Shown in pieces: positions 12,249-63,042 of a stretch of 64,000 bases of DNA. The notes below the pieces were generated by a model. It saw only the letters and a list, made by a program, of their open reading frames with translations. It searched no databases and was not told the DNA's origin. A program made the translations under genes and the position numbers. Origin of the DNA: Terriglobia bacterium (GTDB lineage: Bacteria > Acidobacteriota > Terriglobia > 2-12-FULL-54-10); assembly GCA_963666975.2 (NCBI GenBank), contig CAXVYR010000004.1, positions 224,001 to 288,000 on the forward strand, read 5' to 3'. How positions within the stretch are numbered: the stretch's first letter is position 1; the number at the start of each line of letters is the position of its first letter.

Positions 12249-12320
12249 CCGAGCTTTCGATTTTAGCTTTCGCTGTGCGAAATCATACGCCAGCCGTCCA
12301 GTCTTTTCCAGCTTAGATTG
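12249..12320 (-). promoter_or_regulatory. IS1380-end-like promoter relic facing the UbiD gene
   Basis: TGGAAA-17-TATGAT; shares GGACGGCTGGCGTATG exactly with the 55884..55957 copy; ends in degenerate GCTAAAATCGAAAGCTCGG. Confidence 0.65.
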
Positions 12321-12639
12321 CTGCGGAAAGGCAGTTGGACTCACAGAACTCAAAACATTTCAAAAATTGACTCCAACATTGCTCTGTTCCATTATTAGAG
12401 TTGCTCAGCGGATGATCCCCTTCTGGTCGTCCGGTATTGGGGAAAAGAAAGTGTTCGCAAGGGATTCCCGAGCCTTGCGCTTCCTTTCTTCGGGATCAGC
12501 AATGTACAATCCTCTATCCGAGGGTGCCGACTCTCAGGACCAGAAATCCATGAGAAGGGGCGATGCGCCGGGAGCTGAAACCGGCGGAGCTTTTGCAAGC
12601 AGTTGCCAGAGGCCCCTTTTCTTGACCTAAGGAGTCATC

Positions 12640-14094
12640 ATGAAACTTTCCTCCGTTCTTCTCTTCGTGTTGTCAGTCGTTGCTTGCTCGGTTGCGCTTG
12701 CCCAGATGGCCGAAGAGACCGGCCGGTCCCCCTTCCTGATCATTCAGGGGGGAACGCTCATCGATGGTACCGGAGCCTCTCCCACAAGCAACGGAAGAAT
12801 TGTTGTTCGTGGCAATAAGATCCTGAGTGTTGTTGGTGACACCGACGAGCCACTTCCGGATGGAGCCCGCCTGGTTGACGCGCGAGGAAAATATATTCTT
12901 CCCGGCCTGATCGACGGACATGCGCATTATGCAGGTTATGCCGAGCCTCTCTACCGTTCTAACGGGATTACATCGGTTGTTGACGTAGGAAACCCAACCC
13001 CGTGGATTCTGTCTCAGAAATGGGCCATCGAAAGAGGCTTGCTTCCCGGACCGAGGATCTATGCGACGGGATCTCAGATCGACAATCCCCCGCTGACATT
13101 CGGCTATGGGATCGCCGTCGAGACGGTGGAGGCGGCCAGAAGCGCCGTCCGACGCCAGGTGGAAGCCGGGGTAGACGCAATTAAAGTTTATAAGAAAATC
13201 CGCCCGGAATTATTGCGGGCGGTCATTGAAGAAGCGCACTTCTATGGGATTCCCGTAACCGGGCATATCGCCATGAGCGCTCGGGAGGCCCTCTTGATGG
13301 GGATCGACTCCATCGAGCACGCCGTTGGAATTCACATCCCCACGATGAGGAATCGGGAAAAATTGAAGGAGTTCCAGGAAAAAAGGTATACGGACGTGAA
13401 CTACCTGGCGGCTCATGACACCGTTACGGGAAGTTTCTACTACATGGAACCGGATCTGGTCCCGGACCTGGTAAAGCTCTTCGTGGAAAAGGGAACGTCG
13501 GTAACACCGACATTGGCGTCCTATTGGATCGGAGGCCACGGCTTTGCGGAGCGCTATGCCAGGGAGGATCAAGACCTGTTGTCGAGTCCTGCGTATGCCT
13601 TTGTCCCCGAATTCGATCGTAGGTGGATCATGCAGGCCCACAGTTACTTTGCCCGCATGAAGGCGGGACCCAAATATCGACAAGCCTACAAAAACCTGCA
13701 GTCGTTTCTGAAACAACTGGCCCAGGCGGGAGGAAAGATCGTAGCTGGGACGGATTCTACGGTCTACGAAATGCACGGCATTAACATCCACCGGGAAATG
13801 GAACTTCTGGTGGATGCCGGGTTGACTCCCATGCAGGCGCTTCTGGGAGCCACACGATATGCGGCGGAGAAGGTCCGGAAGTGGAACGAAGTGGGAAGCG
13901 TGGAGTCGGGCAAGTACGCGGACCTTCTGATCCTGGATGCGAACCCGATGGAGGACATCCGGAACACTCGGAAGATTCACATGGTGATCCAGAATGGGGT
14001 TATCTTGGATACGGAGTTGAACCCAAACTTTGTGAATCAGCTTCCCCGCCCGGCACGCGACCCCGAGAAACTGGAGAAGCTGATTTTTCCTTGA
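12640..14094 (+). CDS. Exported metal-dependent amidohydrolase (Amidohydro_1), tandem copy 1
   Basis: Sec signal; PGLIDGHAH, IKVY, TGH, IEH, GTD and GKYADLLILDANP. Confidence 0.9.
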   Translation: MKLSSVLLFVLSVVACSVALAQMAEETGRSPFLIIQGGTLIDGTGASPTSNGRIVVRGNKILSVVGDTDEPLPDGARLVDARGKYILPGLIDGHAHYAGYAEPLYRSNGITSVVDVGNPTPWILSQKWAIERGLLPGPRIYATGSQIDNPPLTFGYGIAVETVEAARSAVRRQVEAGVDAIKVYKKIRPELLRAVIEEAHFYGIPVTGHIAMSAREALLMGIDSIEHAVGIHIPTMRNREKLKEFQEKRYTDVNYLAAHDTVTGSFYYMEPDLVPDLVKLFVEKGTSVTPTLASYWIGGHGFAERYAREDQDLLSSPAYAFVPEFDRRWIMQAHSYFARMKAGPKYRQAYKNLQSFLKQLAQAGGKIVAGTDSTVYEMHGINIHREMELLVDAGLTPMQALLGATRYAAEKVRKWNEVGSVESGKYADLLILDANPMEDIRNTRKIHMVIQNGVILDTELNPNFVNQLPRPARDPEKLEKLIFP

Positions 14095-14166
14095 GGAGGC
14101 TCTGGCCCCAGTGGGAATTTCACCCTGGAAGCACGTTTCCACTCTAGCCGCAGGAAGGACAATCAC

Positions 14167-15630
14167 ATGAAGCAACTCACCGTTCTTTTGGCAATCCTGT
14201 TCCTGGTTCATTGCTCCGCGCGCCCCCCGGAGGGCGAGGAGGTGCGAGGGGGAATCCCGACCCTGGTCATTCGAGGGGGAACGCTCATTGATGGCACCGG
14301 GGCCGGGCCCAGGGAGAACGGGATTATCGTTGTTAGCGACAAGAGAATCCTGAGCGTTTCTCAAAATCCAAACCAGCCCGCACCGGAAGGAGCTCGCCTG
14401 GTTGACGCACAAGGCAAGTACATTCTTCCCGGCCTGATCGACGGACACACGCACTACGACGGAAATGCCGCGCTCCTTTATCTTTCCAATGGGATCACAT
14501 CGGTCATTGACACGGGAAACACCGCCCCCTGGATCTACGCCCAGAAATGGGCGATCGAAAAAGGGCTAGTTCCTGGACCGAGGATCTTTGCGGCGGGGCC
14601 TCATGTCAATTCTCCGCCTGAAATCTTTGCCTCGATGATCATCGAGACCGTGGATGCCGCCAGGACCGCAACGCGGCAAATGATTGAGGACGGGTCGGAT
14701 CTGATCAAGGTTTATAAGCAGCTGCGGCCGGAGCTGCTCCAGGCAGTCATTGAGGAAGCGCACCTCCATGGGATTCCCGTAACAGGCCATCTGGCCATGA
14801 GCGCTCGGGAGGCCGTCTTGATGGGCATTGACTCGCTCGAACACGCCAGCGGAGTTCCCATCGCCACAATGACCGACGAGGAAAAGTTAAAAGAGGTCGA
14901 GGAAAAAAGATACACCGACGCGAACTACCTGGTGGATCATGCCACCCTGCCGGAAAGCTTCTACTATATGCAGCCCGAGCTGGTTTCAGAATTGGTTGAT
15001 CTTTTCATCGAGAAGGGAACGTCGGTGACCCCCACATTGATTTGTTACTGGATGGGAGCAACCGGCTTTGAGGAAGAATATGAAAAGGCTGATCGGGCGT
15101 TCTTTGCGGACTCGGCCTACGGCTTTGTTCCTGAGTTGGAGCGTCGCTGGATTCTCCGGGCCTACGATCATTTCAGCCGCATCAAAGCGGGTCCCAAATA
15201 CGAGCAGGGGTATAAGAATCTGCAGTCGTTTCTCAAACAATTCGCTCAAGCGGGCGGCAAGATCGTGGCTGGGTCCGATGCTTCCGGCTACGGGATGCAC
15301 GGTGTCAGTCTCCACCGCGAGCTGGAGCTTTTGGTTGCCGCCGGCCTCACTCCCATGCAAGCGCTTCTGGGAACCACCCGATATGCGGCGGAGAAGGTCC
15401 GGAAATGGGACGAGGCGGGAAGCGTGGAACCCGGCAAGTACGCGGACCTTCTGATTCTGGAGGCGAACCCGCTGGAGGACATCCGGAACACCCGGAAGAT
15501 TCACATGGTGATACAGAACGGGGTCGTATTGGACACGACCTTGGACCCGAACTTTATCAACCAGATCCCGCGCCCAGCCCCGACAGAGCAGTATATGACG
15601 ATGTATGAGAAGTTACTCTTTGGGAACTAA
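14167..15630 (+). CDS. Exported amidohydrolase (Amidohydro_1), tandem copy 2, possible lipoprotein
   Basis: Signal ending FLVHC; PGLIDGHTH, IKVY, TGH, LEH and GSD. Confidence 0.9.
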   Translation: MKQLTVLLAILFLVHCSARPPEGEEVRGGIPTLVIRGGTLIDGTGAGPRENGIIVVSDKRILSVSQNPNQPAPEGARLVDAQGKYILPGLIDGHTHYDGNAALLYLSNGITSVIDTGNTAPWIYAQKWAIEKGLVPGPRIFAAGPHVNSPPEIFASMIIETVDAARTATRQMIEDGSDLIKVYKQLRPELLQAVIEEAHLHGIPVTGHLAMSAREAVLMGIDSLEHASGVPIATMTDEEKLKEVEEKRYTDANYLVDHATLPESFYYMQPELVSELVDLFIEKGTSVTPTLICYWMGATGFEEEYEKADRAFFADSAYGFVPELERRWILRAYDHFSRIKAGPKYEQGYKNLQSFLKQFAQAGGKIVAGSDASGYGMHGVSLHRELELLVAAGLTPMQALLGTTRYAAEKVRKWDEAGSVEPGKYADLLILEANPLEDIRNTRKIHMVIQNGVVLDTTLDPNFINQIPRPAPTEQYMTMYEKLLFGN

Positions 15631-15703
15631 TCGGTCCAGGCGAGATGCACAAACTTTCAGGGTGACAGAGGATCTGTTGCCAACTTCAGGAGAGAAAAGC
15701 GTC

Positions 15704-17182
15704 ATGAAACACCACACTTTCATTTTTTTCCTCGTCTTCTTCTGCGTAAGTAGCTCTGGCTCTTTCGCTCAGCAGGCCGAGAAGAAAGCGGGAACTGCCT
15801 CCTTGATCATTCAAGGCGGGACTCTCATCGACGGCACCGGGGCCGGGCCAAGGGAAAACGGGACCATCGTAGTTCAAGACAACAAGATTCTCACCGTCTC
15901 TCGCGACCCCATCCAACCATTGCCGGAAGGAGCCCGTGTGATTGATGCGCGGGGCAAATACGTCCTTCCCGGCTTGATTGACGGACATACGCACTATGGC
16001 GGCTATGCCGCGCAACTTTACCTGCACTACGGAATCACATCGGTTGTTGACACAGGCAACACCAGACCGTGGATTCTGGTTCAGAAATGGGCCATTGAAA
16101 GAGGCCTAATTCCCGGACCGAGGATTTACGCTGCGGGGGCCATGATGGATCACCCTCCACTGGTCTTTTTCGATGGGAATACATTCCTGGTCGAGACGGC
16201 GGAGGCCGCTAAAGCTGCCGTGCGACGCCAGGTGTCGGAAGGGGTAGACGCCATCAAGGTTTACAAGCACATGCGGCCGGAGCTGGTGCAGGCGGTCATC
16301 GAGGAAGCGCATTTTCAGGGGGTTCCCGTGACCGGCCATATTTCGTTCAGTGCTCGCGATGCCGTCATGATGGGAATTGACTCGCTCGAGCACGCCAGCG
16401 GAATTCCCATGGCAACGATGACCGATCTGGAAAAACTGAAGGAGATCGAAGAAAGACGGTATACGGATGCAAACTACCTGGTGGATCATGCCTCTCTCCC
16501 CGAAATTTTCTACTATATGCAGGACGAACTGGTGGAGGATTTGGTTGAGCTCCTGGTGGAGAAAGGAACTTCTGTGACGCCCACTTTGGTGTGTTACTGG
16601 ATGGGAGTCCACCGCTTCTCCGAGCGATACGAACAGGAGGATCGAGCCTTCTTATCCAACCCGGCTTATGCTTTTGTCCCAGAATTGGACCGTCGCTGGA
16701 TCTTCCAGGCATATGATCATTTCGGCCGGATCAAGGCAGGCCCTAAATATCAGCAAGCCTACAAGAACCTGCAGGCGTTTCTTAGGAAATTCGCTCAGGC
16801 AGGAGGCAAGATCGTGGCAGGCTCGGATTCCAATCCCGGCTACGAAATGCACGGCGTCAGCCTCCACCGGGAGCTGGAACTCTTGGTGGACGCAGGTCTG
16901 ACTCCGATGCAGGCACTTTTGGGGGCGTCCAAGTATGCGGCTGAGAAATTCCGGAAATGGAACGAAGTAGGCAGCGTCGAGGCGGGCAAGTATGCGGATT
17001 TCGTGATCCTGGATGCCAATCCGTTGGAAGACATCCGGAACACCACAAAGATCCACATGGTGATTCAAAACGGCCGGGTTCTGGATACGGACCTGCACGG
17101 AAACTTCACGGATCAGATCCCTCACCCTCTTCTCAAGGAGGAGGAGATCGGCAGACAGGAGAAACTCCTCTTTGGCGATTAG
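15704..17182 (+). CDS. Exported amidohydrolase (Amidohydro_1), tandem copy 3
   Basis: Start moved to ATG 15704 (MKHHTFIFF signal); same motifs as copies 1-2. Confidence 0.9.
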   Translation: MKHHTFIFFLVFFCVSSSGSFAQQAEKKAGTASLIIQGGTLIDGTGAGPRENGTIVVQDNKILTVSRDPIQPLPEGARVIDARGKYVLPGLIDGHTHYGGYAAQLYLHYGITSVVDTGNTRPWILVQKWAIERGLIPGPRIYAAGAMMDHPPLVFFDGNTFLVETAEAAKAAVRRQVSEGVDAIKVYKHMRPELVQAVIEEAHFQGVPVTGHISFSARDAVMMGIDSLEHASGIPMATMTDLEKLKEIEERRYTDANYLVDHASLPEIFYYMQDELVEDLVELLVEKGTSVTPTLVCYWMGVHRFSERYEQEDRAFLSNPAYAFVPELDRRWIFQAYDHFGRIKAGPKYQQAYKNLQAFLRKFAQAGGKIVAGSDSNPGYEMHGVSLHRELELLVDAGLTPMQALLGASKYAAEKFRKWNEVGSVEAGKYADFVILDANPLEDIRNTTKIHMVIQNGRVLDTDLHGNFTDQIPHPLLKEEEIGRQEKLLFGD

Positions 17183-17270
17183 CCGGGACAACTCCGAACA
17201 GCTGACCGGTTCTGTTCTCATTCCATTCATGCCCGGAGTGGCGCCGTCGGTAGTTGAATTGTCAGATCGC

Positions 17271-19091
17271 TCAGTGAGTGTCAAATGCTGCCTGATACTG
17301 AGCTATCGTGGTTCGGATCGCTTCCAATTCGGATTTTGTCGGATTGTCGGGATCAACCGGCACCGGCAGGGCGCCGAACTTCATCAGGCAAGCCATCAGG
17401 AGCAGGCGAGCTTTGGTAGCGGTCAGATTATTACCTTCGATATATAAGTCGTCTGGATTGGTGGGCGTAATTCCGCCGTGGTTGCCCCGGCCCACTCGGG
17501 CTACAGGAATCCCCCGCAAGACGGCCCCTGTCAAAGCCGCCATTTTCGGTTCGTCAAAAACGCCATATGGCGATTTCCCCTCGACCACAAAACCGGCGAG
17601 AGGAAAATGTTGTAGATTCTTCTCGATCCGAGCCAGGATCTCTACCTCGCTGGCAGCGTCATCAGAATGGTCCGGGGGCGCATACCTGGCGTGTTTCACG
17701 AAGGTTACCATAGGAATCGCCGTCGGGAGCAAGTCTCCCTTCTCATCCTTGATCGAAACCGAAACATTTCTGATCCCATCGCCGATTCGCTGCACCCCCT
17801 GAACGGCGGCAGCCAGCCTCGTCACATTGAACTCGGAAGAATACGTGTGTTGCTTCACAGGCAAGAAAGTAAGCTCCAGGGGATTGAGGCTGCCGATGAT
17901 CCCTCCGTGCCCGCCGGTTGCAATGTAACCGCCGGGCCGATCGTCCCCTTTTTGGACGTCCCGCGCCGTGAAAATCTGTTCTTCCTGAATCATCACGGCG
18001 CCAATCTTGTCGAGCCCGCTTGCATCCTTCCAGACACCGGACACAATGTAGTCGACCGAGTCTACAATATTACGGTCGCCGTCGTTACTCAGCATGCCGT
18101 GCACTCGCTGTGAGGAGTTGCCCACGATGGGCACGGTGGTATCAATCAGCAAGCTGAGCCAGTAAATTGTTTCTTCCGTCGATGGACTCCCCTCCAGCCA
18201 AATCGCACCCGCATAGTCGCCTTTGGCCAGTGCCCGCTGCACCACATTCGTCAAATGCGCCAGAGTTGGCATTGCGGGCTCCTGCCGGAAGGATTCGTAA
18301 GTGAAGAAGTCTTCACCCCACGTTTCATCCGGGATATCCTCCGCACCTACGTCCGTACGCGTACGCTGGGCGGCCGGCAAGCCTTTCCGATACCCACCCG
18401 ACGGAGCAGGCCGGAAGAAATGGAAATCGGCTTTAGAGCTGAGCAGGCCGTTGGTCGCGTTGACCCCAAGGCCGAAACGGTCAATCTCCTCGAAGACACG
18501 TGAGGCATCCGGGTAAAACGACAACCGGCACTTTTCAGGGGGGGCTCCGGGTTGCGCACAATGTCCGTTCCAAGCACTCCCGTCGGCCTGGCGAGCCATG
18601 TAAGGCAGCAAGTACGGTCCGTCTCCCGGGTCCAGTGTGACTTCGAAAACCGGGATGTCGTCAGGCGTTTGGCGTACCCTGCTAAAAGCGCGGGTTTGGG
18701 GGGTGACGTACCCGTCGGGTGGCGCGTAAAGTTCGCTCATGTCTTGCTCCAGGGGATGCGCGCTATATGCTTCAATGTATACCGTCACTGGAGCCGCCAA
18801 GCGTTGAGGTCTCAGGGCGTCAAAGCGCAGGGATGTTCCGTCCCGATGCGTGAGAGGCGGTAGCCCGTATTTCTCCCTCGCCTTATTGCTGGTGACAAGA
18901 GGTTCGCTGTTCAGTATGGTTGCGGTCGGCCCTGAAAACACAGCGATCCTTGGTTTGGCATCCTGCCCGTAGGTCGACAGGGCAACTCCGGCAAAGATCA
19001 TCACGAGTGGCAGTATGCGGGCAGAAATAAGCGAACAGGGACGTCTAATTCCACTCGAGCAGCGATTGCTTTTCCTTAAATTCCTGGACAT
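17271..19091 (-). CDS. Exported asparaginase/glutaminase-fold protein with atypical active site
   Basis: IAVFSGPTAT, EGSPSTEETIYWL, NSSQR, SNDGDRNI, ARDVQK and NNLTATKARLLL; N-terminal hydrophobic signal. Confidence 0.8.
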   Translation of the reverse strand: MSRNLRKSNRCSSGIRRPCSLISARILPLVMIFAGVALSTYGQDAKPRIAVFSGPTATILNSEPLVTSNKAREKYGLPPLTHRDGTSLRFDALRPQRLAAPVTVYIEAYSAHPLEQDMSELYAPPDGYVTPQTRAFSRVRQTPDDIPVFEVTLDPGDGPYLLPYMARQADGSAWNGHCAQPGAPPEKCRLSFYPDASRVFEEIDRFGLGVNATNGLLSSKADFHFFRPAPSGGYRKGLPAAQRTRTDVGAEDIPDETWGEDFFTYESFRQEPAMPTLAHLTNVVQRALAKGDYAGAIWLEGSPSTEETIYWLSLLIDTTVPIVGNSSQRVHGMLSNDGDRNIVDSVDYIVSGVWKDASGLDKIGAVMIQEEQIFTARDVQKGDDRPGGYIATGGHGGIIGSLNPLELTFLPVKQHTYSSEFNVTRLAAAVQGVQRIGDGIRNVSVSIKDEKGDLLPTAIPMVTFVKHARYAPPDHSDDAASEVEILARIEKNLQHFPLAGFVVEGKSPYGVFDEPKMAALTGAVLRGIPVARVGRGNHGGITPTNPDDLYIEGNNLTATKARLLLMACLMKFGALPVPVDPDNPTKSELEAIRTTIAQYQAAFDTH

Positions 19092-19355
19092 TGTTTGGCC
19101 TCCTAACTTTAGGGAAATCTGGGTAGCCTATTTTAGGCCCGATTGAAATCAAGGTGGCCTTTTCTTTAAGATGTTGCCAATTCGCAGGCGTGTTACGTAA
19201 GACGCGCAAGAATCTGGCTGCTTTGTCCCGATGCAGTAGCTTTACTGCGAATTATGGATTTAAACTTCTCTCGGCTCAAGATTGTACGCCAGTAACTCTG
19301 TCAGTTCGGGGAAAATCTGGGAGTGTGATGCAACCCTGATGTCCCGGCTCCTGAA

Positions 19356-19418
19356 CTGGATATAGGAGGAGGGCTGGTGTATGATGTGCGGAAGATGACT
19401 GGAACATGGAAATTCCGA
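19356..19418 (+). promoter_or_regulatory. IS1380-end-like promoter relic facing the GMC operon
   Basis: TGGATA-17-TATGAT with GGCTGGTG before the -10; ends ACATGGAAATTCCGA. Confidence 0.6.
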
Positions 19419-19549
19419 TTGGGTATTTGCCGGATGTCATTAAATTGCTGGTCTGACGAGTTCCACAGGACTGCGGAAGTTCCTGCCTAGATTCCGGAAT
19501 GCTGTGGCATTGGAGAATCCGGAACTTGGCTCCGTGGAGGGAGGCTAGG

Positions 19550-21148: not shown

Positions 21149-21199
21149 CTGATCGGCTGAATCCGGATCTTGGACTTCCACGAACGAAGGAGCATACAA

Positions 21200-32030: not shown

Positions 32031-32068
32031 GCAAAACATACGCCAATCGCCCGGTCGACTCAAGCTCA
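32031..32068 (-). promoter_or_regulatory. IS1380-end-like promoter relic facing the LLM operon (terminal repeat eroded)
   Basis: TTGAGT-17-TATGTT with TGGCG before the -10; aligns with 55917..55952. Confidence 0.6.
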
Positions 32069-32114
32069 AACCATTGGCCCCTTTCTGTTGTCCTCTGGCG
32101 GGCAAGACGGTGCG

Positions 32115-36063: not shown

Positions 36064-36120
36064 GACGGCTGACGTTTGGTTTGAGGCGAAGAGGAAAGCG
36101 CAAATCGGAAATTCCGTTAA
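36064..36120 (+). mobile_element. IS1380-end-like relic immediately before the M20 start codon
   Basis: GACGGCTGACGTTTGGTTTGAGGCGAAGAGGAAAGCGCAAATCGGAAATTCCG-TTAA aligns with the minus strand of 55884..55936; -10 decayed. Confidence 0.65.
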
Positions 36121-40598: not shown

Positions 40599-40675
40599 CC
40601 GGAATTAATTTTTTGGCTCTCCGGCAGTTGCGAGTATACACCCATCAGCCTCCAACTGAGCCCTTCCAGCACAGG
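40599..40675 (-). promoter_or_regulatory. IS1380-end-like relic (subfamily 2) facing Amidohydro_3 copy B
   Basis: GGGTGTATACTCGCAACTGCCGGAGAGCCAAAAAATTAATTCCGG-TTAA; closely matches 56505..56581 and 62998..63042. Confidence 0.7.
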
Positions 40676-40807
40676 TTTGCTGCCAGCCCATCGAGATTCG
40701 GTACGCTGTTAGTTAAGGTGAGGTGGTTCAATTTGCGGCTCGGGTTCTGGGATGACGGATGGTCTATCGGGAAACCTGTGGACTTACTCCTATGCTGCTG
40801 CTGCCGC

Positions 40808-53838: not shown

Positions 53839-53958
53839 TCATTTTCCTCCCAAGCTCGGCGCCATGCGCCCCTAATACTCTCACTCTTATGAAACCGTGG
53901 TGCAAGCCCTTTCCGGGGATGAGGCCATAGTGTCTTCGCTCCATTAATCCCGGTTGTT

Positions 53959-55866
53959 TCAGTAGCTTCGGGCCTTGAACACGATCTTTCCGCCCACCGC
54001 TGTCAGCAAGTTCTGGATGGTGTGGATTTGGTCCTCGGGAATAGTGAAATAGTCTTTGCTGATAACGATAAAGTCCGCCAGCTTCCCCATCTCCAGCGAG
54101 CCGATGTGTTTCTCCCGCAGCACCTGCTCGGCTCCCCAAATAGTGGCCGCCTTCATCAGGGTTACCCGATCCATTGCCTCATTTCGGTTATAGGTGATCC
54201 CGTCACTGGGCATCCGGCGAGTCACAAAAAATTCGATAAAACCCCAAATGTTGCCATCCCACTGAGAAGGGTAGTCCATATCCTTGGACTCGATCGGGAC
54301 CTTGTTCAGGTGCGCATCGGAGTTGAACACGACATGTACACCGGCGTCTGCCAGGCTTTTCATGGGGACCATCCAGCTCATGTACTGCTCGCCATGGTCT
54401 TCGAGAAAAAGCCTACCCTGGTCGTTCTTCTGTATCTGGTAACCGTTAAAAGCCGGCATAATTCCATACTTGGCTATCTTCGCGATCTGGTCGGGGCGAA
54501 CGAATGGATTGTGCTCCGTACCGATCTTGAGGGCTCGTACTTGCTCGAGAGTCATCTTGCCCTCGGCTATCGCCTGTTCAATCATGTGAAATAAAGCATC
54601 GTAGGTGCCGTCAATATAGGTGTGCAGGTTTGTGATTCGCAGCCCGGACTCCAGCGCCGCCCGCACGTTGCGGTAGCCGGCAAACTCCTCGTAGTCCGTT
54701 CTGTCGGAAGCAGACGGAAAAACGGCGCTCGGATTATCGGGAGCGCGCGGCTTGGCGCGTGTACCAAAACCCCAGATGGCGGGTTCCCAAGCTTCGTTGG
54801 AAACTCCGGCGTTCCAGATGTAATCGTTCCCGATTCCCTGGAAGTCTCCCAGATTGCGGTAAAAGAACTGGAGATCACCCTTGTCGCGCGTTTCATACTC
54901 CTCATTGCCCCAAAGGGTGCCCAGGAACCAGGCCCATCGGACAGGCATCTCGCCCCGCTGGTAGAGCAGATTAAATATCTTCATCGTGGTGGGGGAGCCG
55001 TAGTAATGGTTGCCAAAGGTAGTGACGCCCGCTGCCGCCACACATTCGAGCAGCTCCCGCCGGAGGAAGTCCGCCGCCTCCTCCGTGCGCCCCCGGAAGA
55101 GAATGTCATACAGCACCGCAGTGCGGGCCGGTAACCCCCCGGCTTCCCAGCCCAGGAGCTTTACCATTTGCTCCACGGCTCTGGTGTTGTTGATGTTGGG
55201 CCCGAGGGCATCGCTCCCGAACGTCATGAGGGGATTGTCGGGCGCCAGCGTATCCAAATACTCCCTGGTAATCGGCGCACTGGGTCCGCCGGGTTGCTGA
55301 AAGAGAGGGAAGACAATCTCTCTTGATTCCGGGATGCTGTTTTTGGCAAACAGGCTGACCCAAATCCACTTGCCCGGGCCTAACTCTTGTGCTCTCTGCC
55401 GAACCACCCGTTCCAAGGACCTTAACAGTTCCGCCCCGTCATTCCCCTTGGCGTAGACGATCCTCAGTTGGGGATCGTTGTACTTCTTGGAGGTAAACTC
55501 CCCTTCCGCACCCAGCCAATGCTCGGCGGCCCATAGCGGCGGATGGGTGTGGCCATCAATCAGGCCCGGCAGCACCCGGCGCCCCTTCGCGTCCAGCACC
55601 TCGGTGTTCGGACCGGCCAGAAACCGAATTTCGTCATTCGTTCCCAGCGCGAGGATCCGGTTGTTCCTCACCGCCATGGCTTCCACCTCGGTCAGCCGTT
55701 CATCCATGGTGGAAATCTTGCCGTTGACGACAATCAAGTCTGGATAAGCTTTCAGGAGTTCCAGTTTCCTGGCCAAATCATTCGCGTTTTGCCCAGAAGC
55801 ACTAGCCTGCAGGAAAAGAGCAAGTAGGATTACTAACCCCAGCAGACCAAAGTGTCTCACCCTCAT
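53959..55866 (-). CDS. Exported Amidohydro_3 protein, copy D (close paralogue of copy C)
   Basis: Signal peptide; PGLIDGHTH, LHTYID, TEH and NSDAH; long stretches identical to copy C. Confidence 0.9.
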   Translation of the reverse strand: MRVRHFGLLGLVILLALFLQASASGQNANDLARKLELLKAYPDLIVVNGKISTMDERLTEVEAMAVRNNRILALGTNDEIRFLAGPNTEVLDAKGRRVLPGLIDGHTHPPLWAAEHWLGAEGEFTSKKYNDPQLRIVYAKGNDGAELLRSLERVVRQRAQELGPGKWIWVSLFAKNSIPESREIVFPLFQQPGGPSAPITREYLDTLAPDNPLMTFGSDALGPNINNTRAVEQMVKLLGWEAGGLPARTAVLYDILFRGRTEEAADFLRRELLECVAAAGVTTFGNHYYGSPTTMKIFNLLYQRGEMPVRWAWFLGTLWGNEEYETRDKGDLQFFYRNLGDFQGIGNDYIWNAGVSNEAWEPAIWGFGTRAKPRAPDNPSAVFPSASDRTDYEEFAGYRNVRAALESGLRITNLHTYIDGTYDALFHMIEQAIAEGKMTLEQVRALKIGTEHNPFVRPDQIAKIAKYGIMPAFNGYQIQKNDQGRLFLEDHGEQYMSWMVPMKSLADAGVHVVFNSDAHLNKVPIESKDMDYPSQWDGNIWGFIEFFVTRRMPSDGITYNRNEAMDRVTLMKAATIWGAEQVLREKHIGSLEMGKLADFIVISKDYFTIPEDQIHTIQNLLTAVGGKIVFKARSY

Positions 55867-55883
55867 CGTTTTCCCCCGTTAAA

Positions 55884-56300
55884 CCGGAATTTCCGTTTTG
55901 ACTTTCCCTCTCGCCCAAAAGCATACGCCAGCCGTCCTATCTACTCAATCTCGGATTGTCATGGCCTTTTGGGTGGCATTGTAGCTCGTATTGGCCGTTC
56001 TGCGCAGTCGCTGTGCGGGGTTTTCCAGCCCCAACCGCCCTTGCCGCTGACACTTCCCCGCTGGATGGCTTCCGAGCGCTCACTTGCCTTCTGTCCTGGT
56101 TCATTAGCCGTCCGGCAGCGGCAATGCTGCGATCATCCTCAGCATACTCGCAAACGGTCTCCGACTCAAATGCCCCTCGGCGAGCAAAAGCCAATAATAC
56201 CGTGCGTGGTGCCTGACCAGCCGACCTCCGTCTTCACCAACCGCTGCTGCAAGCTCGTCAACGACCATTTCCTGATTCTTTGCGGCGATTTCGGTCTCCC
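55884..56300 (-). mobile_element. IS1380-family remnant: frameshifted transposase C-terminus plus right end with outward promoter
   Basis: WSLTSLQQRLVK / GGRLVRHHARYYWLLLAEGHLSRRPFASMLRMIAALP* (stop at 56104) resembles the IS1380 transposase tail; TTGAGT-17-TATGCT at 55948..55920; terminal GTCAAAACGGAAATTCCGG then TTTAA. Confidence 0.8.
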
Positions 56301-56504
56301 CGCTCAATCGAACGATCCCTGCCGCTTGCAACGCATTCGTCAACCTTCCTCGGTAGCAGCCGGTAGCACTCCGTGGCAGACGGGAGTCCACACACCAGGA
56401 CTTGCGCGGTTGGCTCGGATGGCCGTGGGGTTTCAGCAAAAAACAGCTGAGCCGATGGGTTCTTAGGAGCTAAGAGAACCGCTCGGAGCGTACGGAGAGA
56501 AAAA

Positions 56505-56581
56505 AACTGTCCTGGAAGGGCTCATCTGGAGGCTCCTGGGTTATACTCGCAACCGTCGGAGGGCTAAAAAATTAATTCCGG
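56505..56581 (+). promoter_or_regulatory. IS1380-end-like relic (subfamily 2) facing the LVIVD gene
   Basis: CTGGAAGGGCTCA...TATACTCGCAACCGTCGGAGGGCTAAAAAATTAATTCCGG, matches 40599..40675. Confidence 0.7.
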
Positions 56582-56744
56582 GTAAACTCTCTTACTGGCA
56601 CTGGCACAAAAAATCGGTCCGGTCAGACGGGGAAGCATCGGCGCAATCGCTGGGAAAAAGGGTAGTTCCAGATGTTCCCGTACCTGGAAGAGGCAGGACT
56701 GACTGCCTCTGGGGCAGTGAAGGCATGCATGATGAAAAATTCTG

Positions 56745-56805
56745 TTGCAACGAAAGCAGTTGGGCGTATAACTTTTCGTGGCGGAATCCAAAATGGAAAT
56801 CCTCG
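56745..56805 (+). promoter_or_regulatory. Further IS1380-end-like relic facing the LVIVD gene
   Basis: TTGCAA-16-TATAAC with GGGCG before the -10; ends CCAAAATGGAAATCCTCG. Confidence 0.5.
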
Positions 56806-56939
56806 ATGCATAGAACAAAAAAACCCGCTTATTTTTCCTATGCTCAGGGAACGGGGTGGCAGGTCTTCGCCTCGAGAATCCTCTCAGGATCGGGAAGGGC
56901 TTTCACAGTCAGGTAACCTGATAATCTGGAGGGCACACC

Positions 56940-58574
56940 ATGAAAAGAGTGATCTGGTTGAGATTCGGGCTTGGGTTCCTGTTCGCACTTACCCTTCCTG
57001 CGGCTTGCCAGAGAGTCGCCGACGGCCCTGTCGAAGATGCCGTGAACATAAAATACGTAGGCAGCGCCACCACCAGCGACGGCCAAGTCGATCTGGGGGC
57101 CTATTCGAAGCTCGCCCCGTGGCCCGATACCGACGGCCGCTACCTGTACTCCGGCTGTTACGACCCCGGTCCGCTTGTTGCTGAAATCCCCGGGGAAGAT
57201 CGCTGCTTCATGACGGTCGATCTGGAGGATCCCGAGAAGCCGGTGCGTCTGGCCACGGTGTACGGGTTCGAACGAGTCGCCTCACCGTCGCCCCCGGCGG
57301 GACATATTGTGTGGTCCTCGACATACGTGTTCCCGAACCTGCCCGTCCAGGTCCCGTGCAACGTCAACTGGGACGATCCGGGGATCGCGGCTGGAACCAC
57401 TAAACCTGCGTGCTGGGACCCCGGCTGGAACACGCACAGCCATTACGTGGCACAGGCCCCTGGGAAGATCCTCGCGGTCAATCAGGAGCGGTACCGCAGC
57501 GGCACGGACCGGCAGGCGAGTTACCACGGCGTCAAGTTTTACGACATCTCCAACCCCGCGAAGCCCGTGTTCCACTCCTACTGGGAATCGCCCGCGTCCG
57601 ACCCCGATCCCGAAACCGGGGTATGGCCCGACGCCGTCGGGACGCACCACTTCAACTTTCAAGACCGGCATCTCTACCTCGGGACGACGTATGAGGGGTA
57701 CATAGCGAGGATCCTCGTGATCCTCGACGTGACGGATTCCCGGAACCCTGTCGAAGCCGGGAAGTGGTGGGTCAAGGGGCAGAAGACCCCGGAGGAGGAT
57801 GCGGTCCGCGACTGGGTCCCGCAGTCCAACGACAGCGCCCTGCGTAGCCCTATCGTCGATCAAGGCGGGAAGTGGACGAAGCATGTGGGGATGCACTATG
57901 TCTCGATCTATGAAAACCGCGCCTACCTCTCGTACCATCAAGCCGGGCTGGTCATCCTGGACGTCAGCGACAACAGCAACCCCCAACTCATCTCGCGGCT
58001 CGACTACCTGGTTCCAAGCTTCGACCCAGAAACCCCGGATCGGGATGCCTGCAGCAAGGCCGCAGGTGGGAAATCCGCGGCGTGCGGCAATACGCACTCC
58101 GCCAAGCTCGTGCCTGGCAACAACAACCTGCTCTGGGTCACCGACGAGTACTTCAGCTGTCCCTATGGCCACCTGCGTATGGTGGACATCAGCGACGAGA
58201 CGAAGCCCGAGATCATCTCACACTTCCTGTACCCCGAGAACATCGCCTGTGACCCCAACAACCCTAGCCAGACGGCCGATCCGACACGATTCCCAAGGCG
58301 GGGCCCCTCGTCACACATCGGCAATACCTGGGGTGACAGCCTCCTCTTCCTGGCGTGGTACGGCATGGGAGTGCGGGTGATCGACATCGCGGATCCGACG
58401 CATCCGACGGAGGCGGCACACTACATGTATGACATCGACCAAAACACCCCAGCCTATGCCGGTTCCATGACCTACGATGTCATCTTCGGGCGCGGAGGCT
58501 ACCTTTACGTGTCGGATGGCACGAGCGGCCTACGGGTGCTGAAATACACGGGTCGAGGGGATCCTGCTGAGTAG
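56940..58574 (+). CDS. LVIVD-repeat beta-propeller lipoprotein
   Basis: Lipobox LPAAC; repeats GVKFYDISNP, LVILDVTDSRNP, GLVILDVSD, LRMVDISD and GVRVIDIADP. Confidence 0.85.
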   Translation: MKRVIWLRFGLGFLFALTLPAACQRVADGPVEDAVNIKYVGSATTSDGQVDLGAYSKLAPWPDTDGRYLYSGCYDPGPLVAEIPGEDRCFMTVDLEDPEKPVRLATVYGFERVASPSPPAGHIVWSSTYVFPNLPVQVPCNVNWDDPGIAAGTTKPACWDPGWNTHSHYVAQAPGKILAVNQERYRSGTDRQASYHGVKFYDISNPAKPVFHSYWESPASDPDPETGVWPDAVGTHHFNFQDRHLYLGTTYEGYIARILVILDVTDSRNPVEAGKWWVKGQKTPEEDAVRDWVPQSNDSALRSPIVDQGGKWTKHVGMHYVSIYENRAYLSYHQAGLVILDVSDNSNPQLISRLDYLVPSFDPETPDRDACSKAAGGKSAACGNTHSAKLVPGNNNLLWVTDEYFSCPYGHLRMVDISDETKPEIISHFLYPENIACDPNNPSQTADPTRFPRRGPSSHIGNTWGDSLLFLAWYGMGVRVIDIADPTHPTEAAHYMYDIDQNTPAYAGSMTYDVIFGRGGYLYVSDGTSGLRVLKYTGRGDPAE

Positions 58575-59080
58575 GATGGCCATCTGCGGGGTGTGTCAGG
58601 AAACCGATCCTTGCTTCCACCTTGTATTCAATGCATTTATCCAATAGCACTGCTGTCCGGTTAAAAGTCGAACAGAATCAAGTGGTTGTGATCTGCGACT
58701 AAATTGTCCTGGCAGTTTGATGCTTCCAACACCTGTAAAATGGGCACTTTTTCAAAAAGCGTCACACTGAGAATCTGTATTGAAACGAAGGACTGACCGT
58801 AGAACTACGAAATTCTCTCCACCCATTACCACTGTCCGAGTACTGTCCGAAAACTCCTGCCGAAAGGATCCAACTCAGGCCAAAAGCGTTAGCGGAGAGC
58901 CACCTGACTCGCCGGCTGTTTGCTAGCATGCTGGGGCGGATAGATGGACTACCGCTTCCGTCGGGATAGCCGAGGCTGCGGCACCCAAGAAAACGATTCC
59001 GCTATCCTCCCAGGGATGGAGCGTTGTCTGAAAAAGCTGGTTTGGGTGCCGTGCCTACGGATTATTAGGACTCGGAAAAA

Positions 59081-59231
59081 GGTGGCTGGGAGCCGGTATG
59101 TGGCGGAGGACGCGTTGGAGTCCATCCAAACGGACTATGAGCCCCTTCCGGCGGTCGTGGATGCGCGGAGCGCGGTGAAGACAGATGCCGTGCGGATTCA
59201 CGAGGAGACCCAAGGCAATCTGGCCGGCAGC
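59081..59231 (+). pseudogene. ~150-bp orphan fragment of the L2/L3 Mo-hydroxylase gene
   Basis: Encodes VAGSRYVAEDALESIQTDYEPLPAVVDARSAVKTDAVRIHEETQGNLAGS, near-identical to L2/L3, opposite orientation. Confidence 0.88.
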
Positions 59232-59514
59232 AGATACGCTTGCTCTGGGTTGTAGATCAAGAATTTCATCGCTCCTCCTTGAGGCGCATTATACAAGGTT
59301 CGCCAATAAAGGTTTCCACACAGACTCTATAGCCCTTTCCCGCCAATGAAACCAGTTTCACAACCCCAGGCTGTGATGTAGACTCTCTCACTGAGACTGG
59401 CACAAAATATCGGTCTGGTCCCCCATCCTTTGATCCGGGCACTGTCCGGCAATTCTGTTGAAAGAAGAGGTGAGGGTGCTCCGGGTCATAGTTTCTCCTC
59501 GGTTGAATCGCGCT

Positions 59515-60549: not shown

Positions 60550-60620
60550 ACCCGAAAGGCCTCCACCGTTGTTTGCGCGCGAACGATCCGGCAATCAAAC
60601 CGTTTGAGCCCGCCCTCCGT

Positions 60621-62960
60621 CTATGCTTCCCCTGGAGATCCCTCCATCCGTCGCGATTTCGCAATCAGCTCCTGGAGCTTGTTCGGACTCAGCGGCAAAT
60701 CGGTGATCTGAATACCGAGGGGTTTTAAGGCATCCGAAACCGCGTTGGCCATGGCGCCGCCCACCCCCGCTGTGCCACCCTCTCCTCCACCTTTCACCCC
60801 CAGAGGGTTGAGGGGAGATGGGTCGTTTTCAAACAGGTGAACCTCCACGGGAGGCATCTCCATGCTCGACGGCAGAAGGTAATCCATGAAGGAGGTGCAA
60901 AGCAACTGTCCCGCCTCATCATACACAAGCTCTTCCAGAAAAGCGCCACCCAAACCCTGCGCCACGCCCCCCAAGATTTGACCTTCCAGGAGCATCGGGT
61001 TGATGGCCCTTCCCACATCATAAAGCGACCAGAACTTCTTCACCGTCACCACGCCGGTGCCTGCATCCACCTCGGCCAAAGCCACCTGTACGCCGTGGGG
61101 ATAAGTCATGTGCTTTGCTTCAAAGTAGTGTGTGGCTTCGAGGTCGAGCCCGCTCACGCCCCAGTTCCAGGAGTCGGAAGCGTGCCGCATCAGTTCACCC
61201 AAGGAGAGGGCTTCCCGCTTCCCGCTTTTGGCAGAAAGAGTCGATCCCTCGAACTGGATCTCCTCTTCCGAACAGCCGAAATACTCCGCCGCCAGCCGGA
61301 CTACTTTCTCCCGGAGCTTCCTGGCGGCCAGCAGCACTGCATTTCCGCCCATCACTGTCACACGGCTCGCAAAAGTCCCGGTGCTGTGTGGGGCCAGGGA
61401 GGTGTCGCCGTGAACCACGGTGACGTCGTAAATATCCAGGCCCAGTTCGTCGGCGCAGATTTGCGCCAGCGTGGTCTCCAGCCCTTGTCCCAGCGAGGTT
61501 GCACCCGTGTACACCACCGCCTTGCCGGAACGGTCCATCCGAACTCTGACGGCTTCGAACGGGCCTCTGCCGGTCTTCTCCACAAAACAGGCGAAACCGA
61601 TTCCTATATATTTCCCATCCGCGCGCTGGCTTGCCTGTTCCTTCCGAAGGCGGCCATAGTCGCTGAGCTCAACGGCTTTCTGCATCAGCCTGGGATAGTC
61701 GCCGCTGTCATAGGTGATCGGAGTTTTGAACACGCTCGTGCCCACGCTGTAAGGCATCTCCTGCGGCTGGATAAAATTGCGGAACCTCACAGCGGCAGGG
61801 TCCAGATCCAGACGCAAGCTGATCAAGTCCATCAGTCTTTCTCTCACAAAGTTGCTTTCGTACCGGCCCGGGGCCCGGTAGGTGCCAACGGGTGTCTTGT
61901 TGGTGATGACTGCATTCCATTCGCACCAATAATTGGGGAGCCGGTACGGTCCTGGAAACACGCCAGCGGCCAGGGCTGGAATCGTCGAGCCTCGAATATA
62001 GGCGCCCATGTCGTTCCAGATTCTTGCTTTTACCGCCTGAAGATCGCCCTCTTTCCCCGCTGCCACTTCCACTTCCCACTGCTGTTCGCGGGAGTGATTG
62101 GTGGCCAGAAAATGTTCTCTCCGGTCTTCGATCCACTTCACAGGACGGCCCAAAGAGAGGGCGAGAAACGGGACCAGAAAATCCTCGGGATAAAATTCTC
62201 CCCGCACCCCGAAGCCGCCTCCCACATCCGGTTCGATGAAGTGGACGCTGTGCTCCGGCAGCCCCAACAAGGAGGCCAGCACCGAGCGATTGAAGTAAGG
62301 AACCTTGGTGGGTCCCCAAACCGTCAAGACCTTTGTGCCTCGATTGTACTCCGCAACCAACCCCCGGGTCTCCATCGGCATGCCGGTATGCCTCTGGATC
62401 GTAAATTGCTCCGAGAAGGTCAACCCGGCCTTCCGGAAGGCCCCCTCCACATCGCCCAGATCGACCACGCCGCTGCCGGCCAGATTGCCTTGAGTCTCCT
62501 CGTGAATCCGCACGGCATCTGTCTTCACCGCGCTCCGCGCATCCACGACCGCCGGAAGAGGCTCATAGTCCGTTTGGATAGACTCCAACGCGTCCTCCGC
62601 AATATACCGGCTGTCGGCAACCACAATGGCCACCGGCTCCCCCACGTATCGAACCTTCTCTTTGGCCAGCGGATATTGAAGATATGAAACGAAGGAAGGA
62701 TGGGACTCCAGGCGCATGGGGATGAGCTTTGCCAAATGAGAAATGTCGTGGAACGTGATTACGCTCAGCACCCCGGGAATCCGGAGCGCTTCCCGGGTGT
62801 TCACCGCTCGAATCCGGGCGTGCGCGTGGGGACTCCGCAACAGGGCCGCATGCGCCATCCTGTGGAGTCGGATGTCATCCACGTAGTTGCCTTCCCCGCG
62901 CAGGAAGCGGGGATCTTCTTTTCGCTTGACCCGCTGGCCGATGAATCTCCCTCGGTGCAT
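60621..62960 (-). CDS. Mo-hydroxylase large subunit (L3), near-identical duplicate of L2
   Basis: Long DNA-level identity with 46876..49227; same motifs. Confidence 0.92.
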   Translation of the reverse strand: MHRGRFIGQRVKRKEDPRFLRGEGNYVDDIRLHRMAHAALLRSPHAHARIRAVNTREALRIPGVLSVITFHDISHLAKLIPMRLESHPSFVSYLQYPLAKEKVRYVGEPVAIVVADSRYIAEDALESIQTDYEPLPAVVDARSAVKTDAVRIHEETQGNLAGSGVVDLGDVEGAFRKAGLTFSEQFTIQRHTGMPMETRGLVAEYNRGTKVLTVWGPTKVPYFNRSVLASLLGLPEHSVHFIEPDVGGGFGVRGEFYPEDFLVPFLALSLGRPVKWIEDRREHFLATNHSREQQWEVEVAAGKEGDLQAVKARIWNDMGAYIRGSTIPALAAGVFPGPYRLPNYWCEWNAVITNKTPVGTYRAPGRYESNFVRERLMDLISLRLDLDPAAVRFRNFIQPQEMPYSVGTSVFKTPITYDSGDYPRLMQKAVELSDYGRLRKEQASQRADGKYIGIGFACFVEKTGRGPFEAVRVRMDRSGKAVVYTGATSLGQGLETTLAQICADELGLDIYDVTVVHGDTSLAPHSTGTFASRVTVMGGNAVLLAARKLREKVVRLAAEYFGCSEEEIQFEGSTLSAKSGKREALSLGELMRHASDSWNWGVSGLDLEATHYFEAKHMTYPHGVQVALAEVDAGTGVVTVKKFWSLYDVGRAINPMLLEGQILGGVAQGLGGAFLEELVYDEAGQLLCTSFMDYLLPSSMEMPPVEVHLFENDPSPLNPLGVKGGGEGGTAGVGGAMANAVSDALKPLGIQITDLPLSPNKLQELIAKSRRMEGSPGEA

Positions 62961-62997
62961 TACGATCCCTCTCGGTTTACTTTCTTGCTGCTTTAAG

Positions 62998-63042
62998 TCG
63001 GGATTAACGTTTTGGCCCTCCGGCGGTTGCGAGTATACACCC
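62998..63042 (-). promoter_or_regulatory. Truncated IS1380-end-like relic (subfamily 2) facing L3
   Basis: GGGTGTATACTCGCAACCGCCGGAGGGCCAAAACGTTAATCCCGA-CTTAA; upstream part replaced by the IS6 remnant. Confidence 0.65.

Follow-up and report, generated by a model that had tools for sequence, protein, structure and literature searches.

The window, a stretch of 64,000 nucleotides from a Terriglobia bacterium (contig CAXVYR010000004.1), was searched alone with a profile built from 111 copies of a short repeated element found in the genome. The initial annotation had described a dispersed family of such elements; the sequences were present where it had placed them, and its 10 sites were exactly the ten best profile matches in the window, eight at E 1e-18 to 0.004 and two weak (E 0.11 at 32033-32069 and E 0.4 at 19357-19420). 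No match better than E 1.1 was obtained in five mononucleotide shuffles of the window. Six window copies are contained in the profile and were first found with profiles made from other copies, except that at 55884 (a seed). As had also been claimed, every copy points into the adjacent gene (10/10). The copies, genes and transposase remnants are as follows.

10757-12169 (-): UbiD-family gene
12246..12320 (-; tip 12249): solo right-end relic of an IS1380 element with a -10-like box, TATGAT, and a degenerate tip (match 12319-12246, E 4.2e-5); tip 79 nt upstream of the start of the UbiD-family gene
17271-19091 (-): asparaginase-domain gene
19249..19305 (-): weak, diverged right-end relic (profile match 19305-19249, E 0.0036), lying approximately 157 nt ahead of the asparaginase-domain gene
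19357..19420 (+; also given as 19356-19418): marginal right-end relic, TATGAT ... GGAAATTCCGA (E 0.4, beating all 5 shuffles), with the GMC oxidoreductase gene starting 78 nt downstream
19499-21148 (+): GMC oxidoreductase gene
30769-31854 (-): luciferase-like monooxygenase gene
32033..32069 (-; also given as 32031-32068): partial relic, -35/-10 half only (TTGAGT, 17 nt, TATGTT), without the terminal repeat (E 0.11), approximately 178 nt upstream of the monooxygenase gene
36064..36117 (+): solo relic inside an operon, degenerate -10 TTTGGT (match 36064-36116, E 3.5e-5), 4 nt ahead of the ATG of an M20 peptidase gene
38653-40506 (-): Amidohydro_3 gene
40599..40681 (-): solo relic, TATACT box, of a subfamily with intact copies in the genome (match 40671-40594, E 1.1e-18; second search 3.9e-22), 92 nt upstream of the preceding gene
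53959-55866 (-): Amidohydro_3 gene
55884..55957 (-): right end, TTGAGT, 17 nt, TATGCT (match 55955-55879, E 7.2e-14; other searches 5.7e-14), 17 nt upstream of the preceding gene
56107..56285 (-): IS1380 transposase C-terminus remnant (aa 399-457 of 457, with a single frame break; tblastn E 6e-16)
56479..56581 (+): 103-nt solo relic with a TATACT box (match 56512-56586, E 1.5e-12; second search 5.2e-19), the LVIVD-repeat gene starting 358 nt downstream
56749..56805 (+): diverged, from another subfamily (TTGCAA, 16 nt, TATAAC; relic matched at 56749-56802, E 0.0019), approximately 136 nt ahead of the LVIVD-repeat gene
56940-58574 (+): LVIVD-repeat gene
58889..59100 (+): IS1380 remnant missing from the original list, transposase tail (aa 432-457) and approximately 130 nt of 3' region (tblastn E 5e-8)
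60621-62960 (-): molybdopterin-binding dehydrogenase large-subunit gene
62998..63045 (-): solo relic cut to 47 nt, TATACT box and tip kept (match 63046-62993, E 7.5e-12; second search 2.5e-9), 37 nt upstream of the dehydrogenase gene

The relics at 19249 and 19357 stand back to back, and that at 56749 aligns with three genome copies of its own subfamily. The 55884 copy is, as had been noted, still attached to a transposase tail lying directly behind it; copies 74% identical to 55879-56286 occur in another genome (G036) with intact IS1380 transposase genes beside them. By comparison with intact copies, the remnant at 58889 is truncated ahead of the right end.

Some relics are common to two species. 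In the same-genus genome G001 the 12246 relic is found at the orthologous site, where synteny stops 24 nt past its inner edge, and the 40599 relic and its gene are inverted together, with synteny stopping at the inner edge of the relic. The 32033 relic is absent from the syntenic place in G001, as is the 62998 relic from its orthologous site, where the alignment stops 12 nt short of the tip.

Origin of the repeated element

With the IS1380 transposase model NF033539, twelve full-length matches (355-376 bits; cut-off 180 bits) and additional fragments were identified in the genome, and both ends of the insertion sequence were derived from an alignment of these 12 copies with their flanks. In the eight copies with both ends located the element measures 1648-1660 bp, and the 5-bp target duplications, close to NTWAA, match in five. 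The left tip is CCCGCATTTCC, and the right end carries TAnnnT, then 32-37 nt, then AA(A/T)TTCCGG. The solo relics are collinear with the final 45-283 nt of intact copies of the same genome (in the window, those at 40599, 56479 and 62998), and their lengths are spread continuously over this range. Judged by sequence comparison, the repeated element is the right end of decayed ISPme1-like IS1380 insertion sequences, in agreement with the family assignment made initially. The TTAA/TAAA-like sequence noted after the tips recurred genome-wide: of 108 copies with distinct flanks, 78 have T at position 2 and 85 have A at position 4; this AT-rich sequence is the target duplication. The choice of right end is flexible, two genome copies terminating at an internal ATGATTCCGA, 193 nt before the usual end, with duplications that match.

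Copy numbers differed sharply between the two ends (111 right, 34 left). No left end lay within 2.5 kb of 76 of the 111 right ends, and solo right ends outnumbered solo left ends (without transposase and without right end) by 76 to 5, so that the descriptions of the copies as relics of eroded insertions and of the right end as preferentially kept were both upheld. Six strict copies lie in the window compared with 1.7 expected per 64 kb. The idea that they are special to this island did not survive: four other 64-kb bins of the genome hold 5-6 strict copies each and relatives carry tens of such ends. The phenomenon is genome-wide and lineage-wide.

Orientation, distance and the promoter-like box

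With genes called by a crude ORF caller, on which the orientation and distance figures depend, 64/76 solo right ends were co-oriented with the downstream gene compared with 53.5% of 20,000 random intergenic points, and 45/76 lay within 150 nt of it compared with 20.2% of such points. With duplicated flanks removed, both biases persisted (63/74, P = 9e-9, and 44/74, P = 2e-13), bearing out the orientation bias relative to start codons for which a check had been proposed. A general strand bias is excluded, because only 42/76 solo elements have a same-strand gene behind them. In 1.3 Mb of G001, used as a replicate, 15/16 solo ends were co-oriented (P = 7e-4) compared with 7/15 intact copies. In the genome under study the intact copies (13/15 co-oriented) are as biased as the relics, so that young and old copies show no contrast there.

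The right end contains an outward-reading, -10-like TAnnnT box, which ends 32-37 nt short of the tip; it was found in 104/111 copies compared with 10.5% by chance, including 69/76 solo copies, and matched TATAAT at four or more of six positions in 92/104. Conservation of 90% or above among 33 copies from five subfamilies was confined to the columns of the T, A and T of the box, one preceding G, two A of an A-run and the tip ATTCC. Mean conservation in 38 solo copies was approximately 0.93 over the six box positions compared with 0.77 overall, which may merely reflect constraint within active source elements. A -35 with at least 4/6 matches at 16-18 nt was present in only 24/104 copies (9% by chance); a strict rule left only six, and the commonest subfamily has none.

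Several observations speak against a promoter reading. A canonical -35 is missing from the remaining 80/104 copies, and a strict sigma-70 scan of two stretches gave 0 promoters in 55800-56950 and 0 in 40450-40950. The M20 relic, whose degenerate TTTGGT box has lost the -10 A, is nevertheless kept with that same box at the orthologous site of G001, and is thus conserved in two species. Four metatranscriptome runs (contigs only) yielded no transcript start, and no relic was covered by pieces among the matches listed.

The relics may alternatively be inert debris or rearrangement scars that initiate no transcription, the genes being transcribed from promoters further upstream or by read-through, and insertions or remnants in the wrong orientation having been purged where they come between a gene and its promoter or direct transcription of the transposase strand into the gene. 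We regard this as unlikely, although the missing -35, the empty strict scan, the M20 relic conserved within an operon despite its dead -10 and the interruption of G001 synteny at two relics' inner edges all favour it, as does the finding that the -10 box was not significantly better kept at operon heads (41/43) than inside operons (9/11; P = 0.18). Nor did its retention differ significantly between solo ends near a co-oriented gene (50/54) and the remaining solo ends (19/22; P = 0.41). However, purging of the wrong orientation makes sense only if the right one restores expression, and an outward promoter would therefore be implied. Moreover, at 18 solo relics the gene to the rear is divergent and a co-oriented one lies within 150 nt ahead, the median gap to the upstream gene being 321 nt, and read-through is therefore impossible at these sites. 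Neutral decay cannot explain the excess of solo right over solo left ends, nor the retention of TAnnnT in most solo copies.

Gene capture, a binding site or mobile units

It had also been proposed that one-ended IS1380 transposition captured and carried the genes next to the relics, and that the island was assembled from such modules; ISEcp1-blaCTX-M and ISPme1 are the parallel cases. This behaviour is described for the family (PMC9330008, PMC3281130), and the flexible right-end choice and the heavy rearrangement of the region relative to G001 are in keeping with it; we nevertheless hold it to be decidedly unlikely. The scan for capture modules covered intact copies, as solo relics have no left end, and within 20 kb of the three intact copies with unmatched duplications it turned up no module that runs from IRL to an alternative IRR and has a matching 5-bp duplication. 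The sole candidate (a 7/8 match at +16,671) was rejected, being within chance, and its copy is better explained by an internal end. In addition, 14 Amidohydro_3 genes carry ends of differing subfamilies at differing distances, which fits independent insertions upstream of resident genes, and the G001 orthologue of the 60621-62960 gene is in place without a relic, one case of a gene preceding the insertion.

It is very unlikely that the terminal repeat, at approximately +10 to +27 of the proposed transcript, was kept as a putative binding site for transposase or a host factor, making each relic a promoter plus operator cassette and the relic-headed genes a co-regulated set. The last 12 nt are conserved at 0.86 in the 38 solo copies compared with 0.71 for each segment flanking the -10 box, the tip is conserved across five subfamilies, 12 full-length transposase genes are present in the genome, and no DNA-binding regulator domain was found among the 46 window ORFs of at least 100 aa. 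Against this, similarity-based detection favours copies retaining the tip, which is missing in 32033-32069 and degenerate in 12246-12320. That the copies are non-autonomous, still mobile MITE-like units with two terminal repeats is hardly credible, for although six right ends are accompanied within 2.5 kb by a left end but no transposase, one of these copies (G000 C4:2284589) joining approximately 100 nt of left end to approximately 150 nt of right end, most right ends have no such partner, short IRL-like words were no commoner upstream of solo ends (13) than in downstream controls (16), and relic lengths are continuous.

Known systems and the proposed role of the relics

Plasmid-borne relatives, of which one carries the annotation 'ISPme1 family', match the genome's transposase at 51-55% identity, and the element shares its length of approximately 1.65 kb and its 5-bp duplication with the ISPme1/IS1247 group of Paracoccus and Xanthobacter (Table 2 of PMC3281130 gives IS1247 as 1672 bp, IR 16/13, DR 5). 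The left end of a Microvirga relative also begins CCCGCATTTCC, and relatives end in GGGGAATGTCGG followed by TTAAG or GTAAC. What differs here is that most copies are solo right ends without transposase and that several diverged subfamilies coexist.

ISEcp1, found upstream of blaCTX-M and other resistance genes, belongs to the same family and has the same layout, its right end carrying an outward promoter (putative in the copies here) that reads across the terminal repeat to the adjoining gene, and an AT-rich 5-bp target; on an E. coli plasmid its TTGAAA and TACAAT are 18 nt apart, the tip GGAATTTAGG follows after a further 74 nt, and TTAGA comes next. In contrast to the copies described here, its -10 ends 74 nt rather than 32-37 nt from the tip, it has a good -35, which most copies here lack, its transposase is only 25% identical to that of the genome, and its known cases are single loci under antibiotic selection, whereas this environmental genome has tens of relics ahead of catabolic genes. 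In Bordetella pertussis many copies of one element, IS481, supply transcription to their neighbours, but these are intact. The solo LTRs of eukaryotic retrotransposons are terminal fragments which outlive the element and serve as promoters; they arise by recombination between two identical ends, a route which cannot yield these relics.

Complete outward promoters are reported as proven in the IS1380 family by PMC9330008, which describes that at the 3' end of ISPme1 as surpassing that element's transposase promoter 150-fold in strength and records a deletion after which approximately 200 bp of ISEcp1, with its promoter, remained upstream of blaOXA-232. Service as the promoter of a neighbouring gene has been demonstrated by experiment for ISEcp1, for ISPme1 and for one ISEcp1 remnant of approximately 200 bp. 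The corresponding promoter is putative in the genome's copies, where sequence and analogy suggest both outward activity of the relics and selection for it.

On balance we favour, with some confidence, the reading that the relics are decayed ISPme1-like IS1380 right ends surviving as promoters of neighbouring genes. Intact copies would have inserted upstream of genes and over time lost the transposase gene and left end, the last 45-280 nt surviving where they face a gene, most likely because transcription would start approximately 27 nt inside the tip and run across the terminal repeat and on into the adjacent gene. The relics thus probably switch on many catabolic genes through an outward promoter-like box and, if this is true, each relic would be the promoter of its neighbouring gene.

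Identity and ends of the dispersed copies

The ten sequences listed in the initial annotation were re-read and found present, with a common layout of a G and TAnnnT, about 20 variable bases, an A-run and then GGAAATTCCGG or CTAATTCCGG. The exact word GGAAATTCC was found to occur 131 times in the 4.23-Mb genome, and 15 of its copies were used as seeds for nhmmer iterated over the genome, giving approximately 55 matches. The ten top matches of the all-copy profile on the window alone were the same ten sites, eight with E values from 1e-18 to 0.004 and two weak (32033-32069, E 0.11; 19357-19420, E 0.4); the best E value in five shuffled windows was 1.1. Strict copies numbered 6 in the window compared to 1.7 expected per 64 kb, and 5-6 were present in each of four other 64-kb bins. 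A known RNA family was ruled out (Rfam gathering thresholds on the window returned a tRNA alone), and the idea of GGAAATTCC as a sigma-54 promoter or palindromic operator was dropped, as the motif turned out to be the tip (outer right terminus) of an insertion sequence.

The IS1380 transposase model NF033539 gave 12 full-length matches in the genome (355-376 bits; cut-off 180) and about 20 fragments, and several motif matches lay approximately 230 nt past a transposase stop codon. Element borders were set where similarity begins and stops in an alignment of 12 flanked copies. Both ends were located in 8 copies, which defines an element of 1648-1660 bp with left end CCCGCATTTCCAGTTTGAAA and, reverse-complemented, right end CCGGAATTAGTTTTTTGGCC (short terminal inverted repeats); the right terminus reads ...GGGCCAAAAAACTAATTCCGG or ...GCTAAAAAGGAAATTCCGG. 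A 5-bp target duplication was identical in 5 of the 8 two-ended copies (CTGAC, ATTAA, GTTAG, CTTAA, TTTAC) and mismatched in 3. The ends and the 5-bp repeats thus identify the motif as the right terminal repeat together with the preceding 40-80 nt. Collinearity of the listed copies with intact right ends was confirmed: a profile made solely from the last 110 nt of the 8 intact copies recovered 40599-40681, 56479-56581 and 62999-63045 (E 4e-22 to 3e-9). Their identity as IS1380 right-end relics, as initially proposed, is near certain. The flank consensus beyond the tip was NTWAA: of 108 distinct flanks, 78 have T as the second base and 85 have A as the fourth. The 'TTAA-like' bases that had been noted after the copies accordingly belong to the target.

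The transposase shares 51-55% identity with relatives borne on plasmids, one of which carries the annotation ISPme1 family; its identity to ISEcp1 is 25%. Alphaproteobacterial relatives terminate in ...GGGGAATGTCGG, followed by TTAAG or GTAAC, and IS1247, of the IS1380 family, is tabulated with 1672 bp and a 5-bp repeat (PMC3281130, Table 2). A palindrome of about 60 nt was observed within the first 110 nt of the element, just upstream of the transposase start (e.g. approximately 1385-1445 of sequence L002), and positions 38-99 of the left-end profile match both strands of every copy.

Transposase remains in the window are tails only (NF033539 family), and the copy at 55884 was indeed found still attached to one of them:

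56107-56285 (-): transposase tail, attached to the right end at 55884
58889-58966 (+): second transposase tail, without a right end and with IS sequence to approximately 59100 (sequence comparison)

The subfamily of the 55884 copy has no intact member in this genome; it shows 74% identity to many copies in G036, a genome of the same class, in which intact IS1380 transposase genes adjoin them. The stretch 58889-59255 comprises the second tail and about 130 nt of IS 3' sequence, a break at approximately 59100 and then unrelated sequence, spanned by an open frame at 58944-59255. Right ends lie back to back with their tips outwards twice in the window (19249-19420 and 55884-56581), both times in a divergent intergenic region with one end facing each gene. 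Just past the last relic, an IS6/IS240-type DDE transposase fragment adjoins a tRNA-Ser(GGA) gene (63071-63565, 63719-63808).

Solo right ends and their orientation

Right ends were counted with two profiles (the last 110 nt of the 8 intact copies, and the seeds) at E <= 1e-3, and left ends with a left-end profile. The genome was found to hold 111 right ends compared to 34 left ends, and the relics derive from several element subfamilies.

Right ends in the genome by what accompanies them
Transposase of at least 400 aa behind: 15
Transposase fragments: 14
Left end, without transposase: 6
Solo right ends: 76

A left end was absent within 2.5 kb for 76 of the 111 right ends, while only 5 left ends lacked both a transposase and a right end. 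Short words resembling the left terminal repeat numbered 13 upstream of solo ends and 16 in downstream controls, so that the solo copies are not MITEs (miniature inverted-repeat elements), short units that would carry two terminal repeats and a target duplication. Similarity to the intact element extends 45-283 nt back from the tip with no favoured length among 34 solo copies of the main subfamily; the lower bound of 45 nt coincides with the detection limit and so provides no evidence for a minimal promoter.

Genes were called with a crude in-house ORF caller (3323 genes). Solo ends were co-oriented with the downstream gene in 64 of 76 cases, at a median distance of 71.5 nt and within 150 nt in 45 of 76, compared to 53.5% co-oriented and 20.2% within 150 nt for 20,000 random intergenic points. 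The bias held when copies with shared flanks were removed (63/74 co-oriented, P = 9e-9; 44/74 within 150 nt, P = 2e-13), in agreement with the earlier observation that the window copies point into the adjacent gene. Only 42 of the 76 solo ends share their strand with the gene behind, so that it is the gene ahead to which the bias applies. In 18 cases the solo end has a divergent gene at its back and a co-oriented one no more than 150 nt ahead.

The same pipeline was applied to 1.3 Mb (about one third) of G001, a genome of the same genus, where it identified 32 right ends and 22 left ends. Solo ends were co-oriented in 15 of 16 cases (P = 7e-4), 3 of the 16 being common with the window, compared to 7 of 15 intact copies, a random orientation to the next gene; intact copies in the genome holding the window are as biased as its relics (13/15), and the contrast in orientation between young and old copies therefore rests on one genome. 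Transposase matches in G001 (contigs C2, C4 and C7) numbered at least 32 and scored almost alike, a sign that one IS1380 element may have multiplied recently in a burst.

It had also been proposed that the island was assembled by one-ended IS1380 transposition with capture of adjacent genes. This was unsupported, as no module with matching repeats was found: within 20 kb of the 3 intact copies with unmatched duplications, no module from a left end to an alternative right end carried a matching duplication. Two copies on contig C3 of the genome holding the window, 757138(+) and 1162572(-), stop 193 nt early at an internal ...ATGATTCCGA and are bordered by matching target repeats (CTAAA; TTTCAA). 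This 1467-bp variant represents the use of an alternative right end, and the outward box is absent from it.

The outward -10-like box

Five subfamilies, represented by 33 copies, were compared column by column; conservation reached 90% or above only at the three fixed bases of TAnnnT, one preceding G, two A positions of the A-run and the tip ATTCC. Of the 111 copies, 104 carry TAnnnT at 27-52 nt before the tip, compared to 10.5% of random windows; its last base was 32-37 nt from the tip in 98 of the 104, and the commonest boxes were TATACT (40), TATGCT (13) and TAGGTT (8). A -35 element with at least 4 of 6 matches at 16-18 nt spacing accompanied only 24 of the 104 boxes, compared to 9% by chance, and 6 pass the usual E. 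coli rule. Most promoters of some phyla show only TANNNT. A strict sigma-70 promoter scan identified 0 sites in 55800-56950 and 0 in 40450-40950, and at the M20 copy the box is replaced by TTTGGT, in the genome holding the window as well as in G001.

Retention of the box was not significantly higher at operon heads (41/43) than inside operons (9/11; P = 0.18). Per-position conservation across 38 solo copies was suggestive, if confounded by differences between source subfamilies. In each of five metatranscriptome runs, 5-8% of the words of window positions 53900-57900 were present, and four of these runs gave, over 38600-58599, short contigs inside genes only, which are uninformative on transcript starts, strand and level.

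ISEcp1, on an E. coli plasmid, carries TTGAAA, 18 nt and TACAAT, 74 nt before its tip ...GTGGAATTTAGG, and the -10-like box at the right end here would fit this known design of the family. For IS1380 members, the portions of PMC9330008 consulted describe proven complete outward promoters, an ISPme1 outward promoter 150-fold stronger than its transposase promoter, and an ISEcp1 deletion that left approximately 200 bp, including the promoter, upstream of blaOXA-232. We infer that the relics act as promoters for the gene ahead; this is the explanation that fits best and, on balance, a probable one.

Regional history, gene families and significance

Three relics, those upstream of the UbiD, M20 and amidohydrolase-B genes, recur in G001 at orthologous sites (91-93% identity), while the G001 orthologue of the 60621-62960 gene has no relic before it. 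The amidohydrolase-B gene and its relic are inverted in G001, and synteny stops at the inner edges of two relics. Window positions 12345-32122 (19.8 kb; three Amidohydro_1 genes, an asparaginase-domain gene, a GMC oxidoreductase, a symporter, an acyl-CoA ligase and others) are absent from the syntenic place in G001, which holds 60 unrelated bases instead. As some relics are common to G001 and others absent, they are of mixed age in a region rearranged around them. In the 1.3 Mb of G001, a match of 85% or above was found for the flanks of 10 of 111 relics and for 69 of 600 control gene starts (P = 0.51); no more than 3 junctions there are common to both genomes, too few to compare substitution rates. 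With the query used, five relatives gave no orthologue of the LVIVD gene. Beyond close kin, the nearest homologues of the M20 peptidase (36125-37405) are in Methylomirabilota/Rokubacteria and Alphaproteobacteria MAGs (70-78% amino-acid identity), and there are hints that the M20 gene cluster may be of horizontal origin.

A sequence-only right-end model was run on 40 relatives.

Right-end model matches in relatives
G001, same genus: at least 76
G002, same genus: at least 83
G036, same class: at least 107
G028, same class: at least 37
G003, same family: at least 23
G005, same family: at least 17

G005 gave a single weak transposase match, in a fragmented assembly.

Using four window members as blastp queries, 86 paralogues of Amidohydro_3 (YtcJ-like, approximately 630 aa) were identified in the genome holding the window. 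The window examples are:

22775-24715: Amidohydro_3 gene
38653-40506: Amidohydro_3 gene (amidohydrolase B)
40920-42869: Amidohydro_3 gene
53959-55866: Amidohydro_3 gene

A right end was located no more than 300 nt upstream of 14 of the 86 paralogues compared to 63 of 3237 other genes (odds ratio 9.8, P = 5e-9), and the right ends before Amidohydro_3 genes are of differing subfamilies at differing distances.

To our knowledge, insertion sequences with outward promoters have been described mostly at individual antibiotic-resistance loci. Literature searches covering sources outside subscription journals gave, among the matches listed, no account of IS1380 elements acting in this way in Acidobacteria and no genome-wide collection of solo IS ends that serve as promoters. 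Such a mechanism is of a known kind; within the reach of these searches, what is new is its scale, together with its repeated appearance before one gene family and its occurrence in an environmental lineage.

One tentative joint reading, which we consider possible rather than probable, is that a soil-bacterial lineage may have turned the IS1380 right tip into a standard portable promoter-plus-leader cassette, a counterpart of the solo LTR, which would head about 60 genes per genome and would have been recruited independently at least 14 times before one expanding family of exported amidohydrolases; through the retained terminal repeat, which would lie immediately after the start of transcription, transposase or a host protein could co-regulate these genes. 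If the relics are active, the outward-promoter process would operate at the scale of a regulatory network in this genome; annotators would then be warned that upstream 'repeat debris' can be a promoter, and how newly acquired or duplicated bacterial genes come to be expressed, long debated, would become directly testable in an environmental organism.
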